In this document: in pieces, positions 23,983-46,884 of the stretch | Layout: every line of letters starts with the position of its first letter | Numbering within the stretch: the first letter of the stretch is position 1 | Notes under the pieces: generated by a model | What the model was told of the DNA's origin: nothing | Seen by the model: the letters and a program-made list of their open reading frames with translations, nothing else | Database searches by the model: none | IMG/VR virus record: IMGVR_UViG_3300013104_000002 | Span: 82,491 to 146,490 of that record | Source: a virus | Strand: one strand, 5' to 3' | Length of the DNA stretch: 64,000 nt | Position numbers and translations under genes: made by a program

Positions 23983-25209
23983 TTAAGTAAACTGTGTAAA
24001 CCATTTATCTGTTATATAATTATTTTCATCTATGAAAGTATCCACCATAGAATTTTTCATGGAATATAATAGATTTAGATGTTCTAATAGCTCTGTTTTT
24101 GTGTATAGTTTTTCTACTTGTTTTGCGGATTTTGTTTTTAGATATTCTGTGTAAGGTAGGAACACTTTATATTTCCACTTACATTCTGAATGATTTTGGT
24201 TTATATTGTTTGGATTCACTTCTCTTCCTGTGGAATTTATTAGTTGGTGTTTAACATCTAAAGTTTCAACTTGTAAATTTCCCGCCAAAAAAGATAATAC
24301 AGAAGAATCAATTTTCTGAACACCTAATTGTTTATCTGAAGACATAATAACTTTTTGACACAAAATGTTCAAGTTAATTGTAGAAAATCTTTTAAACAAA
24401 ACTTCTCCATTACACACCCAATCACCATTTAAAATTTTTTCTTTTGGATCCGTTATATAAATCTCTCCGTTAATTCTGTGTATGTTTTTCATATTTATTT
24501 TATATTTTCTGTTGGGTAAGCATTGATAATAGACTCTTTGTTAACTTTCCACATTTGGCGTGTTCCAAGTATATCATAGGATTCTCCAAGTTCTACTAGT
24601 TTATACTTAGACCCTTTTCTATCTGGTCTTACAAATAAATCAATTCTGTTTGTCTTACTAGCTTCTGATAAAGCTTGTTCTACGTGATATTTTGCAAATT
24701 CAATCATTGCTTTTTGCACTCCCTCCATTTGAGAAGTATCTCCATATTTACCAAAGACTTCATCTAACTTATCTAATAAGTAATTTTCTGCTGTCATATT
24801 TATTTGTTTTTATATTTTTATTTCGCGCGAAAAAGAATTAAACAGGAGGAACTAACTGCAATCCTTCAAATAATCCAGCTTCTAAAGCATCTTCATAAGT
24901 ATCGTACTCAATATTAAAATTAGGATTGCTGCCATTTTCACCAGTTTTTAAAATACTAACTAGGTATTTACTATTATATGGTAGAATTTGTATATGGATA
25001 TCATGGACTTCTCTAAGCCAACGTTGTAATAAAGATTGTGTTGGTGCCGAATACAACTCATCTTCAAAAAACTGTTCGGGATCAGAATAAAAGGGTAATT
25101 CTGGTTCAAACTTACCAAACTGATTATAACAACCATATCCTTTGACTAGAATGAGACCTTTTTCTTGTGCTAACTTAGCTGTTTCAAATTTTATTTTTTC
25201 TTCTTCCAT
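23983..25209 (-). CDS. three hypothetical proteins (23983..24492, 24495..24797, 24838..25209)
   Basis: Contiguous minus-strand ORFs downstream of the promoter at 25228-25259. Confidence 0.7.
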
Positions 25210-25227
25210 AATTTAATTTTTAAAACA

Positions 25228-25259
25228 CAAATATACAACATTAAAATAATATACACAAC
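25228..25259 (-). promoter_or_regulatory. Bacteroidota primary-sigma promoter
   Basis: Minus strand TTG...TATATTTG (plus strand CAAATATA 25228-25235). Confidence 0.65.
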
Positions 25260-25338
25260 AAAAAGTCCAAGAAAATACCCCACCTTATTAAAAAGGATAC
25301 CCCCCTGTTTATTAAAACCAAAAAAGTCGGTAGAAAAA

Positions 25339-25369
25339 TTGGAAATAAGAAATAATAATCGTATATTTG
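25339..25369 (+). promoter_or_regulatory. promoter of the Panacea gene
   Basis: TTG 25339-25341, TATATTTG 25362-25369; ATG follows 4 nt after the box, so the mRNA is near-leaderless. Confidence 0.6.
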
Positions 25370-25373
25370 TCAC

Positions 25374-25934
25374 ATGGATAAAATAAAAGCATTTGAGTAT
25401 TTAATTCTAAAATTAGTAGAATGGTACGGAGATAATAATGACATGGGAACTCTTAAGAGCCTAAAACTTCTTTGGTTTGTATCAGTTGTTGAAGCAAATA
25501 AAGATTCTAAAGATAGTTTAATTGATAAAGTATTTGATAATTTTCATGCAATGCCTTATGGACATGTTGAAAAGGATATTTATGAAGCAATCCGTGGCAA
25601 AAAAATAAAAAACATAGAGCTGAAAAGTAATACCGCCAATATATTAAATAAGGATAGAATATTAGAAACCGATAAAGAGATTAGAGAATTAATAGATAAG
25701 AGTATTGAAAAATTTAAAATATTAGCTCCTGAATATATAAACCTACTTTCGTTTGATCTGGTTATTTTAAGTCAAAGATGGTATTCATGGAAGTATTACT
25801 ATAAAAAAGCCAGACAAAAAGATAAGTTCTCAGAGAAAATACCAAATGAAATAATAAAAAACGAATTCAAATACTATGAGACTTATAACGAAAATGTTAT
25901 TTACAGACTTCTGTGTGGGAGGACTATACCATAA
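25374..25934 (+). CDS. Panacea/SocA (DUF4065) antitoxin-domain protein
   Basis: LK-x-LKLL-x-F, F-x-AMPYG-x-V-x-x-x-IY, S-x-x-LV-x-x-S-x-x-x-x-x-W. Confidence 0.75.
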   Translation: MDKIKAFEYLILKLVEWYGDNNDMGTLKSLKLLWFVSVVEANKDSKDSLIDKVFDNFHAMPYGHVEKDIYEAIRGKKIKNIELKSNTANILNKDRILETDKEIRELIDKSIEKFKILAPEYINLLSFDLVILSQRWYSWKYYYKKARQKDKFSEKIPNEIIKNEFKYYETYNENVIYRLLCGRTIP

Positions 25935-26719
25935 CTCTCCAATCAGCCAGGCACTTTTTCCCTCCATACCCACCTTAGTATTGTTTCGGTTTTATCTGTC
26001 CTTAGAAAGCCGATTTTTACTTTTCGTTTCCAGATTTATTTTTAGTTGTTAGTTACTTTTATTTTGTTTCTTAGTTACTTGCTTAGTTACTTTTTATCTG
26101 TTTTTATATTGTTTTTCGCAGAATTTTTTAGCTCCTGTTTATTTTATATTTTCATTAGTATAATTTAAATAGGATTTTTTGTTTTTATAATCAAATTGTT
26201 TTTGCCCGAAATTATAATATATGAACGCATGTGCGCGTACAATACGAAATTCTTTTTTAATATCCTAGTGTTTTTTATTTTTTATTAAGTTATTTTCGCC
26301 GTTTCTTTGTAGTGTTGAAAGGGTAGTGGGTTACTAACCAACTAAACAAAGTTCTTATAAGTAAAAGATTTTTAATAAACAAATTTATTTTTAATTATTT
26401 TTGTTTTATCTTTACAAAAGAATTAAGGATTACAAGTTATTTGACATATTGACAAGCGGTGTTACAAGTATCATATAAAGCTACTATTAATTTAGAAAGT
26501 GATTGCAGGGTGCGAACAAAGGTACACGCTTAATTTATCGGATTAAAACAATACTCTATTTATTAGAGAATCATATAAACATATATTAATGGCTTAATGT
26601 AAAGCCTTTTCTTATTCTTTTTTGTCGGCGAAATGCGGGAAAAGAAAACAAAGCCCTTGCAATTTAGTTGTAGCATCGAAGCAACGAGGGCGCAATTAAC
26701 AATTTAAAACAAAAACATT
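25935..26719. other. long non-coding region; candidate genome terminus/origin and early control region
   Basis: ~780 bp with no ORF, strong T skew, TTAGTTACTT x3 (26049, 26071, 26083), transcription diverges around it. Confidence 0.5.
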
Positions 26720-44589: not shown

Positions 44590-44620
44590 TTGCATAATTA
44601 AAATAAAGGTTGTAGATTTG
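44590..44620 (+). promoter_or_regulatory. promoter of non-coding cassette 2
   Basis: TTGCATAATTAAAATAAA...TAGATTTG. Confidence 0.7.
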
Positions 44621-44629
44621 CAGTATTAA

Positions 44630-44754
44630 GTTGAGATGGTGGAATTAGTAGACACTATATTGAATAAAATCCATTGGTATGACAGGTATGCCTATTTAAT
44701 ATGAAAATGTGAATAATAGTAGCATTTATGTAGGTTCAAGTCCTACTCTTGACT
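44630..44754 (+). tRNA. tRNA-Leu-like RNA with an expanded anticodon arm (atypical or pseudo-tRNA)
   Basis: Acceptor GTTGAGA/TCTTGAC; Leu-type D arm GTG-GAATTAGTAGA-CAC; T arm GTAGG-TTCAAGT-CCTAC; variable stem AAATG/CATTT; 125 nt long. Confidence 0.6.
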
Positions 44755-44787
44755 TATTCTTTTTTTGCGCGAAAATATTAACAATAC

Positions 44788-44882
44788 AACAAAGAGTACT
44801 GAATACAACTTAATAGCGCCATTATCCTTAGGGAGTGAATCAGTGATATAATCGTGGGTAAAATTATCAATAACTCTTTGTT
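44788..44882 (+). ncRNA. candidate structured small RNA
   Basis: 10-bp closing stem AACAAAGAGT/ACTCTTTGTT with inner stems ACTGA/TCAGT and TGATA/TATCA. Confidence 0.45.
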
Positions 44883-45526
44883 TAACTTTAAAATACTAAC
44901 ATGAAAGAGTATATTAGAAAAACTATAAATGTAGATAAAGATTCTATTCATTTAAAAGAGATTATGAAAACAGAGTATGAACCTGGATTTGATCCACATG
45001 ATTCTTTTTCGTATGATATTTTTGCAGGAATAAAAGTAACTTATAAAGAATAAATTATGAACGATTTAAAATACTTTTTAATAACTATTTGTGTAGTAAT
45101 TACATTGATAGTTTTAGGTACAGATTTTGAACATTATTTAAAATCCGCCGAAAAACAAAAAGAATTAGAGATAAAAAGATTAGAATTATTAATTAAATTG
45201 AAGAAATAATGATAGTATCAGAATTAATTTCAATAATAGTAGCTGTTTTATTTATGGTTATACTGATTGTAAGATATAGAATAACTAAAGAGGCTAACTT
45301 TTTTGTTTATCTCTTTGAAAGAGGAATTGGAGGTTGGTTTCTTAAATTCTTTTCACTGTATTTTATTTTAGCCGTTATTTCTCACTGGTTTGCATTTTTT
45401 ATCGGCGATATTAAGCTAGAAATAGATTGGAGTTTTTTAAATTATAAAGTATTTTAAATTGAACAAACCATTAATAACATCAGTAGTTTTAGCTATTATA
45501 GCAATAACCTTAATATTTACTTTAAC

Positions 45527-45769
45527 ATGAGAAATTTATTTTTAGCCGTTTTTATGGCGGTGATTTTAGGAAGTTGTACGCAGAACCAAAGAGCAAGAAA
45601 TTTTGGCGGAAAAGAGAAGATTAAACTGCCAGAGAATAATATTTTGGTAAACTCTACTTGGAAACAAGACAATTTATGGATTTTAACTAAAGATACTATA
45701 ACTGATAAGTTTTATTTTAGAGAAAGTTCATCGTTTGGGGTTTTGGAAGGAAGTATAGAATTTAATTAA
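45527..45769 (+). CDS. small lipoprotein
   Basis: Signal peptide with lipobox ILGS-C. Confidence 0.6.
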   Translation: MRNLFLAVFMAVILGSCTQNQRARNFGGKEKIKLPENNILVNSTWKQDNLWILTKDTITDKFYFRESSSFGVLEGSIEFN

Positions 45770-46884
45770 TAAATATGAATCAAATATTTAAAAAACAGAA
45801 AACCATTAGACTTGATGAAAATTATCATTTAGTTTCAGATGGAGGTAATGGAGTGCAGTTAGTATTTACAGAAACCCGCGAAAGAAAAAAGAAAGACAGT
45901 GAAGAAAAAGAAGAGTTCGAATACACTGAGTCATTATACTTTACCAGGATTGCGCAAGCATTAAACCGCTATGTAGATTTAACTCAAAATAAATCACAAG
46001 ATTTAAAAGAGCTTATTGAAAATACCAGTAAGATTTATGAAATCATTAATCAGTTTGATATTAATTTTAAACAGTTTTAAAAATGAGCGATTACGAAAGC
46101 CACACAGGAAGACTGATCTTACAAAAAAGATTAGAAAACGAAAATGATAAAGAATATTTCCAAAGAGTTTTAGGAAGTAAGTTTAAAGAAGAGTATTGGG
46201 CTGAAGAGGAGAGCATGCAAGAATTTTTAGGAATGTGTAATATATTTGAAGAATACTTTTATGCAAATGATAAACTATACTTAAATACCGAGCATAAAGA
46301 ATTAGATCCTTATGATGATATCCAAGAATTAGATGGAGATGATGAAAATGGTTATACTTATTATATGAGGTTTTATAATGGAGGTACTTGTTTATCAGAA
46401 ATGATTGAAGAAAGTTTAGAACAGAAAAATAAATAATATGAAAGTTATAGAAACAGTTAGTAAAGGAGAATGGGGAAATGATGGTAGAATTGAAATTCAA
46501 GTAGTGACAGATACTTTTATAGGTTCTGTCGAGTTTGGAGAAGGGGAGCCAGAGGATATGACTTTAAACAGAGATTTATCGGATGCTTACAATATTGCAT
46601 CGTTAATTTCCGCCGCATACGAAGCAGGTAAAAAAGGAGAAATATATGAATCTGTATATATTGATGAAGAAGAGGAAGAATAACAAATTTTGTCAAAAAC
46701 AAACAGTTTAAAAGAGTTGTGTATTTAATATATTATAACTACTTTTACATCATATTAAAAAGGCAACCGAGTTGTCAGTAAATGAGCAGTCTTGTTTAGA
46801 AGAGCTTGATTTATACAAAAATTAATAGAGACAGTTGGGTAATTTCTTCTGTCTCTTTTTTATCCGCCAAATTTAAATAAATAT

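Follow-up and report, generated by a model that had tools for sequence, protein, structure and literature searches.

What is the role of a short DNA pattern that returns again and again, in either orientation, between and inside the small early genes of a phage? The question is raised by a stretch of 64,000 nt (hereafter the window, positions 82,491 to 146,490), which forms the last 64 kb of the IMG/VR virus record IMGVR_UViG_3300013104_000002, a single contig of 146,490 bp with terminal repeats and 30% GC. The phage genome is complete, uncultured and marine. In this DNA, a T-run, a short C/G core containing CG and an A-run recur as a unit about 25 times. We read the motif as a DNA element restricted to one lineage, which would act as punctuation in the arrays of early and accessory genes, whichever way it points. 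It is real and conserved, and most likely a docking site for a putative DNA-binding protein.

The full form of the motif is cTGTTTTTAAnTC-TTTTT-SSCGS-AAAAA-GAnTTAAAAACAg. Its core can be any C/G run of 4–7 nt that includes a CG, variable in both sequence and orientation. T-tract and A-tract keep a phase of about 10 bp, a distance that the original prediction had noted for the T-tracts. Often the core is accompanied by an arm, TGTTTTTA, on one side or on both. We counted TGTTT at 15–19 nt from the core in 21 and 19 cases on the two strands (about 8 expected), and the arm-plus-core pattern matched 24 times, against 2 matches in a reversed-sequence control. The arm can be on the left, on the right, on both sides (24804-24846, 33215-33257 and 36195-36235) or missing; for intergenic copies in four genomes these classes comprise 17, 14, 2 and 16 cases.

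The recurrence of T-run, CG core and A-run is 4–5 times commoner than the three permuted arrangements or Markov nulls. The strict pattern T3+/S4-8/A3+ occurs 21 times in the whole genome, compared to 4 times each for A-S-T, A-S-A and T-S-T, and Markov nulls gave 5.1 ± 2.4 (order 3) and 9.2 ± 2.4 (order 5). Within the window, TTTSSSSSAAA was found 6 times with 0.53 expected, a count that none of 100 dinucleotide shuffles reached, and the mirror control AAASSSSSTTT once, with the same 0.53 expected. With looser flanks, 53 CG-runs have T on the left and A on the right, and the other flank combinations yield 22, 11 and 13. Sixteen of these 53 are intergenic, while intergenic DNA makes up 8% of the genome. 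The original prediction had asked for a null model that preserves codons and dinucleotides. The dinucleotide null is clearly beaten, but when protein sequence and codon usage are kept in the shuffle, the excess of coding copies is modest (about 2-fold, z 1.7–3.7), so that some of the in-gene copies are probably background.

Unsupervised searches lead to the same motif. Blind expectation maximization on 89 upstream regions ranked it first, and so did repeat finding, through the direct families D1-D4 and D8 and the inverted pairs I1, I2, I14, I15 and I18. Gene duplications were considered as a source of these repeats and ruled out, since the repeats are merely 26–58 nt long. All 30 core positions named in the original prediction do carry a C/G run containing CG, and a sequence-only model trained on 20 copies (R1) supports about 20 of them at E < 0.05. 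Three (41616, 43646 and 55106) have no R1 match up to E = 5 and are rated background-like. Cores 29286 and 59383 also have no R1 match; weak support comes from repeat pair D8 for the former and from a position weight matrix (PWM) score of 13.1 on the minus strand for the latter. Core 53901 is borderline (R1 E 0.045 on the minus strand; the plus strand lacks a T-run) and core 36777 is weak (R1 E 0.15). Copies at 7687, 23003, 27950, 37510 and 45605 had been missed.

The copies concentrate at gene junctions of the plus-strand early and DNA-metabolism modules, with a spacing of about 0.3–3 kb in the arrays. In the window plus genome positions 1-20 kb, R1 finds 22 places at E < 0.01, including 17 from the training set; in the 56 kb of the structural module that were searched, it finds a single weak match (E 0.18). 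Intergenic copies have their core 15–36 nt upstream of the next start codon, and downstream arms usually end 0–12 nt before the ATG. The arm's TAA doubles as the upstream gene's stop codon in three of seven forward copies. The array at 30.3–42.1 kb (12 kb) holds many copies and no host-type promoter. Two copies lie in non-coding RNA contexts, namely an open reading frame (ORF)-free region led by a promoter and the 3' end of a tRNA-like RNA. The individual copies are as follows (window coordinates; E values are those of R1).

7678-7708, minus strand: arm and core inside the small gene 7557-7820; E 1.1e-4, pattern match.
12248-12279, plus strand: arm and core within 11955-12502, which holds no ORF, some 270 nt past a host-type promoter; E 1.7e-4.
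22995-23027, minus strand: arm and core in the 3'-terminal part of gene 22688-23038, with the next start following after 27 nt; E 1.2e-5.
24804-24846, no strand: two-armed with a CGCGCG core, in the gap that separates two minus-strand genes and 30 nt upstream of the start codon of gene 24495-24797; E 1.7e-4 and 3.8e-5 on the two strands.
26165-26213, plus strand: core GCCCG in a 785-bp ORF-free gap; repeat family D1, strict T/S/A match, E only 0.53.
26607-26634, plus strand: weaker copy, core CGGCG, in the same 785-bp gap; repeat family D4.
27118-27148, minus strand: arm downstream of the core, which lies 19 nt ahead of ATG 27148; E 6.2e-5.
27937-27969, minus strand: copy at the 3' end of gene 27678-27980; E 0.0033.
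28271-28281, no strand: core-only TTTGGCGGAAA near the 3' end of gene 28125-28316; pattern match.
28479-28492, no strand: core-only GCGGGGG, followed after about 40 nt by the host-type -7 box 28530-28537; pattern match.
28933-28970, minus strand: intergenic, core CGGC with a weak downstream arm; inverted pair I1 with the copy at 34709-34746.
30031-30059, minus strand: reversed copy where gene 29659-30045 stops, shortly ahead of ATG 30067; E 0.014.
30576-30605, minus strand: reversed copy, arm abutting the ATG at 30605; E 6.4e-5.
31258-31288, plus strand: best copy, CTGTTTTAATTTCTTTTT-CGCGCG-AATT, intergenic, core about 25 nt before ATG 31307; E 7e-7.
31569-31598, plus strand: intergenic copy before gene 31618-32067; E 3.1e-5.
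32059-32091, plus strand: intergenic copy, arm TAA being the stop codon of gene 31618-32067; E 3.8e-4.
33215-33257, no strand: two-armed, core GCGCG, before gene 33265-33567; E 2e-5 and 2.7e-4 on the two strands.
34435-34474, no strand: T7-CGCC-A7 before gene 34482-34703; E 0.0052 (plus) and 0.016 (minus).
34705-34736, plus strand: intergenic copy whose T-run and first core G also read TAnnTTTG; E 2.8e-5.
36195-36235, no strand: two-armed, core CGCGC, arm abutting the ATG at 36233; E 2.6e-4 and 4.9e-5 on the two strands.
37501-37531, minus strand: copy at the 3' end of gene 37240-37551; E 3e-5.
37894-37923, plus strand: copy inside gene 37742-38050; family D4, E 0.028.
38628-38658, plus strand: copy inside gene 38483-38746; E 7.7e-4.
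44754-44779, plus strand: copy starting at the 3' end of the tRNA-like RNA 44630-44754; families D3 and D4, E 0.003, outside the training set.
45599-45626, minus strand: copy inside gene 45527-45769; E 0.021.
46847-46875, plus strand: core CCGCC, intergenic, 19 nt upstream of the start codon of the gene for the small subunit of ribonucleotide reductase; PWM score 17.2.
57115-57146, minus strand: copy inside the gene 56137-57492 (451 aa); E 3.1e-5.

The ORF-free gap at 25935-26719 (785 bp) contains three motif-like copies in all, at 26078-26126, 26165-26213 and 26607-26634. In the stretch 44600-44754, the tRNA-like RNA has a T-arm, an acceptor end and a host-type promoter of its own; ARAGORN and Rfam miss it.

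Both orientations of the motif are confirmed by pattern matches, arm distance counts and the sequence model. The arm is equally frequent on either side of the core, orientation is independent of gene direction, and coding copies occupy all three reading frames. RNA folding of 19 copies with 30-nt flanks gave z values of -1.2 to +1.3 relative to dinucleotide shuffles, with no hairpin centred on the motif. Equal arm frequency, the use of all frames and the lack of RNA structure bear out the earlier preference for a DNA-level over an RNA-level signal. An intrinsic terminator or RNA hairpin was likewise rejected: a T-run is present, but no hairpin precedes it in the 19 folded copies. There is no Rfam match at gathering score and no ARAGORN gene in the window.

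The phage also carries about 20–25 clean promoters of the Bacteroidetes type (TTG, about 20 nt, TAnnTTTG). They serve structural operons and replication genes and are sited away from the motif. In the window, their -7 boxes end at 3580 (minus strand), 5260, 11989, 13802, 17664, 25228 (minus strand), 25369, 28537, 30298, 42132, 44620, 50066, 55798 and 62523. These host-type promoters share an extended context and form a class separate from the motif. We rejected the motif as a host-type (Bacteroidetes sigma-A) promoter, as its consensus contains neither the -7 TAnnTTTG nor the -33 TTTG and is orientation-neutral; overlap with TAnnTTTG is confined to the copy at 34705-34736. Searches for Sigma70_r2 and Sigma70_r4_2 found no match. 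A T7-type RNA polymerase model gave no match either, but the control genomes were equally matchless, so this test says nothing about absence. DxDxD is absent from all large proteins and long frames. No RNA polymerase was found among the large proteins examined, the cargo proteins showing only lysozyme and ADP-ribosyltransferase domains, and PDB sequence searches with the two giant proteins returned nothing.

Is the motif peculiar to this genome? A pattern scan of IMG/VR and protein-based searches yielded five related records (G001, G004, G005, G007 and G008). Relatives with the motif include IMGVR_UViG_3300023314_000001, IMGVR_UViG_3300022751_000016, IMGVR_UViG_3300027994_000001 and IMGVR_UViG_3300033120_000845. 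The complete genomes share 44–98 genes pairwise at about 37–62% identity, and 44–71 genes with the studied genome at about 44%; Cellulophaga phage phi4:1 shares about 30 genes at 35%. The strict pattern and its three permutations are distributed as follows (T/S/A, A-S-T, A-S-A, T-S-T).

Studied genome: 21, 4, 4, 4
G001 (41.6 kb): 18, 2, 1, 1
G004: 41, 4, 3, 4
G007: 45, 5, 6, 6
G005: 24, 5, 10, 5
G008: 34, 2, 14, 5
phi4:1: 3, 4, 5, 2

At E ≤ 0.05, R1 matches 26 times in G007, 18 in G004, 17 in G008, 13 in G005 and 10 in the 41.6 kb of G001, and not at all in phi4:1 or in the structural halves of the relatives. In G007, where all early genes lie on one strand, 11 matches are sense and 15 antisense, so that independence of gene orientation holds across the family. 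An equally common pattern in the host chromosome had been named as a sign of generic compositional bias. Among the matches listed from representative bacterial genomes, there were only single scattered ones and no sign of a multi-copy family. A literature search found no description of the motif.

The closest relatives show how individual sites evolve. Four of them have in common an island of about 75–95 nt with 100% identity that ends exactly at the outer edge of a CG core. Past that edge, G004 has a 537-nt insertion and the other relatives have unrelated DNA. On the other side of the island, there is a host-type promoter (TTG-N20-TAGATTTG), whose -33 TTG starts 25 nt from the core. The adjoining 2–3 kb alternate between swapped segments and identical islands, the latter surrounding two further copies. 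At a second orthologous site, within a conserved near-identical block, the core is the most variable part and reads CGCGCG, CGCGG or CGCG, yet the arrangement of T-run, CG and A-run is kept. As the core drifts while the pattern persists, selection appears to act on the pattern and not on the letters. Breakpoints of insertions or replacements coincide with the repeats at two of three sites examined; the repeats seem to lie often, but not always, at mosaic boundaries.

Islands of 75–300 nt with 100% identity alternate with unrelated segments at L014:4380-6830, L093:13350-16480, L042:5480-7990 and L019:8000-10425. Such sharp mosaicism of close relatives suggests frequent recent exchange among co-occurring phages. 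An unrelated phage, IMGVR_UViG_3300033150_001583 (G006, L111-L117; 139.6 kb, three shared genes, AGGAGG ribosome sites), has an intergenic T/CG/A repeat of its own, for example around 2028-5040 of L116, including the palindrome CCCCCGCGAAAATTTTCGCGGGGG upstream of genes.

How could such an element work? Our preferred reading, which we hold tentatively and at somewhat less than an even chance, is an orientation-free junction element where a protein would dock, with cassette exchange as a by-product. Because the motif is independent of orientation, occurs in all reading frames, lacks RNA structure and is conserved as a pattern, it would be a DNA-level site that is read partly by shape. Docking of a protein would be the simplest mechanism for a site of this kind, a possibility that we rate a little short of one half. 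The core would be clamped between T-tract and A-tract phased by about 10 bp, which would create narrow minor grooves and an intrinsic bend. We infer a putative binder, either phage-encoded or a nucleoid protein of the host, that would recognize the TGTTTTTA half-site and the shape of the short rigid CpG core. The bias towards junctions and the early module suggests that the motif takes part in organising how the small-gene arrays are transcribed, or in switching them: binding at the borders of small transcription or translation units could insulate early-gene arrays or switch them off (or on). The same sequence of about 30–45 bp at many junctions could also provide crossover points for cassette swaps between related phages. 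It seems rather unlikely that all of this is combined in a shape-coded, orientation-free punctuation of about 25–45 junctions, in which one early-made or injected phage protein reads the bend and TGTTTTTA and insulates or shuts off the early and accessory set. This would amount to a global layer apart from the host-type promoters, doubling as a grammar of cassette exchange in marine Flavobacteriia phages.

Several observations weigh against protein docking. Many sites are armless and the core is degenerate, so specificity would need to come largely from DNA shape. In the second island, the mosaic breakpoints lie about 110–120 nt from the motif. The coding copies, as mentioned, are only about 2-fold above the synonymous shuffle. 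The gene calls are heuristic, since they stem from our own simple ORF caller. The 30 small early proteins that were searched contain no Pfam DNA-binding domain. ParB_N has no match in the studied genome, three motif-bearing relatives or phi4:1. The HU/IHF-like gene that the original prediction named as one possible source of the binder (window 2253-2561, minus strand) adjoins the terminase operon and has only a sub-threshold Pfam match (E 5.9e-4, 17.3 bits); the HU/IHF Pfam family gives sub-threshold matches in just two relatives. Compared with four motif-bearing relatives, the HU/IHF-like protein finds nothing, its sole weak match being in phi4:1, which itself lacks the motif. The gene is not clearly conserved in the relatives. 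As for a co-injected protein, one virion protein has an ADP-ribosyltransferase domain, but no finding connects it with the motif.

Two known types of binding site were compared with the motif and rejected. The E. coli IHF site (WATCAANNNNTTR with an upstream A-tract) has 14 matches in the window where 12.85 are expected, none of them at a motif copy, although an IHF-like protein of the phage could have another specificity than E. coli IHF. A ParB/Noc/KorB-type operator would be an exact palindrome of 14–16 bp, but the core varies between copies and between orthologous sites.

A phage-specific promoter is an unlikely alternative to a docking site, even though it would fit part of the data. Host RNA polymerase would be redirected by a phage factor or an injected ADP-ribosyltransferase and start at or just after the core, with the arm as a -30 element. 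Intergenic cores lie at a suitable 15–36 nt before the start codon, the 12-kb array at 30.3–42.1 kb is rich in copies and has no host-type promoter, and one virion protein has an ART-PolyVal domain. Repeated intergenic motifs have proved to be promoters in other viruses, for example in halovirus HF2 (PMC8707807). However, arms and cores have no orientation bias relative to genes, so about half of the copies would fire antisense if they were promoters, and many copies lie inside genes. Moreover, neither a sigma factor nor an RNA polymerase was found, and the motif is unlike the host -33/-7 boxes, which exist separately in good form. We consider it just as unlikely that the main role is recombinational, with the copies acting as PeSL-like boundaries for the exchange of small-gene cassettes and having no regulatory function. 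The copies are situated among ORFan genes, four genomes have islands of 100% identity around copies with swapped or unrelated DNA in between, and a breakpoint with a 537-nt insertion falls exactly at a core edge. In another island, though, the breakpoints are about 110–120 nt off the motif, and inverted copies would produce inversions, not exchange. The centre of the repeat, the core, is its least conserved part and hence poor for homologous crossover, and the persistence of the pattern between genomes with about 44% protein identity suggests selection on the pattern itself.

Other DNA transactions, such as strand-specific nicking as in T5, priming or topoisomerase action, would agree with an orientation-free DNA-level signal spaced at about 0.3–3 kb in the arrays, and the nicks of T5 occur in GCGC-containing sequences. 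Still, we regard them as improbable, because no nicking enzyme was identified, the core sequence is variable and copies are virtually absent from the 56 kb of structural module searched, which genome-wide processes would not skip. An RNA-level signal is quite improbable, whether it were to mark endonuclease cleavage or to enhance translation from the 5' leaders of early transcripts. The sites do occur in short stop-to-start spacers, the regions are unstructured, and the downstream arm TAAAAACAG, usually 0–12 nt before the ATG, resembles the A-rich leaders found in these genomes. Yet the transcript would differ by orientation while both orientations are equally common, AAA[AG]CA is only slightly more frequent before ATGs with a core (16–22%) than before those without (11–13%), and there are copies in ORF-free RNA regions far from any ATG. 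That the cores are methyltransferase targets with incidental flanks appears very improbable to us. Every core has a CG, the tetranucleotides CGCG and GCGC exceed expectation while GGCC and CCGG are nearly missing, and the array contains a methyltransferase-like gene at 38933-39661. The two C5-methyltransferases of the original prediction, however, come down to one weak match, and the cores (CGCGCG, GCCG, CGGC, CCCGCC and others) are too varied for one methylase target, with no single recognition sequence common to them. Methylation would leave the T/A flanks and the arm unexplained, and phi4:1 also has methyltransferases, yet not the motif. Finally, it is hardly credible that base composition, codon usage and the avoidance of restriction sites produce the motif as a by-product, an idea that the controls have already refuted for the most part. 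The genome is rich in AT, its coding strands are rich in purines, C/G runs without CG are depleted because GGCC and CCGG are avoided, and the coding copies stand merely about 2-fold above the synonymous shuffle. Against this, mirror arrangements of the same composition are 4–10 times rarer in six genomes, the arm has a fixed distance from the core, the copies are enriched in intergenic DNA, and phi4:1 lacks the motif despite a similar composition.

Among known systems, the PeSL (promoter-early stem-loop) cassettes of T4-type phages come nearest; a PeSL is a directional element with a strong host-sigma promoter and a terminator hairpin (Arbiol et al. 2010, PMC2839356). Both are short repeats between small non-essential early genes, with dozens of copies per genome and a link to modular shuffling. 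PeSL cassettes are found where related genomes differ by insertion or replacement, which holds for the motif at two of the three sites examined; the copies described here do lie between small ORFs (ORFans) of a plastic region. In contrast to PeSL, the motif has no host promoter boxes and no hairpin and occurs in both orientations, also inside genes. A host-type promoter is adjacent to it, not inside, in one island of the relatives. TF1 of phage SPO1 is a phage protein of the HU family that binds early-promoter regions and needs hydroxymethyluracil DNA. It would offer a parallel for one abundant architectural protein of a phage that docks at many early-region sites, partly via DNA flexibility or shape, but the sequences are unrelated and no comparable protein is securely identified here. 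REP/BIME elements are extragenic palindromes of bacterial chromosomes that form stable GC-rich hairpins. Like the motif, they are imperfect dyads of about 35–45 bp that occur in many copies and both orientations in stop-to-start spacers inside operons; unlike them, the motif has AT-rich arms around a GC centre and no predicted hairpin.

Two further viruses can be compared. In the Cellulophaga phage phi14:2, a crAss-like phage of Flavobacteriia, an injected RNA polymerase transcribes the early genes, for which no shared upstream motif turned up (bioRxiv 10.1101/2020.03.07.982082). It shares with the studied phage the module of muzzle and cargo proteins, host-type promoters for structural and replication genes, and early genes without a host-type motif. 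The studied phage differs in that it has no DxDxD, a motif of RNA polymerases, in any large protein, but does have an upstream motif. Halovirus HF2 also has classes of short conserved intergenic repeats across its genome, which are directional archaeal promoters (PMC8707807); for half of the copies of our motif, promoter activity of this kind is not likely.

Large Flavobacteriia phages of the sea that are near phi4:1 and the crAss-like phages are abundant. For their gene regulation, the motif would be a conserved cis-element that separates small-gene arrays from genes under host-type promoters. Its consensus could help to identify the protein in charge of the early programme, and the motif itself could serve as a marker for swap points of accessory genes in these phages.

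The phage is, judging from protein similarities, a distant relative of phi4:1. Its 2143-aa virion protein has 36% identity to the counterparts in phi4:1 and phi17:2 (Lightbulbvirus) and also matches the muzzle protein of an epsilon crAss-like phage, and the nearest homologues of its ribonucleotide reductase come from Cellulophaga and Tenacibaculum phages. Near-identical DNA was not found among the GenBank phages searched. The ORF caller predicted 254 genes covering 92% of the genome, with a minus-strand structural module of 66 kb between plus-strand modules of small and DNA-metabolism genes. Large plus-strand proteins include a DNA polymerase, a DNA transfer protein, a UvsX-like recombinase, GroEL, thymidylate synthase and DnaB; the array genes around the motif copies are ORFans. 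CpG is depleted overall (observed/expected 0.6), yet clustered. Tetranucleotide counts in the window are 0 for GGCC (38.5 expected), 3 for CCGG (23.9), 34 for CGCG (12.3) and 38 for GCGC (19.7), which looks like restriction-site avoidance plus CpG clustering.

Outside the window, genome positions 27121-33498 on the minus strand (L002:122-6499:-) encode a virion cargo protein of 2125 aa that begins with an ART-PolyVal ADP-ribosyltransferase domain (PF18760, E 2.2e-8, better than the cut-off). Like Alt of T4, this protein may be an enzyme that is injected; towards the C-terminus, it is similar to the last cargo protein found in many crAss-like phages. Inside the window, in the stretches 25210-25373 and 23983-25209, two divergent host-type promoters (25228, minus strand, and 25369, plus strand) flank a three-gene minus-strand operon within the plus-strand region. 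A SocA/Panacea-domain gene with a weak winged-helix match lies on the other side, and the arrangement may be a control switch.

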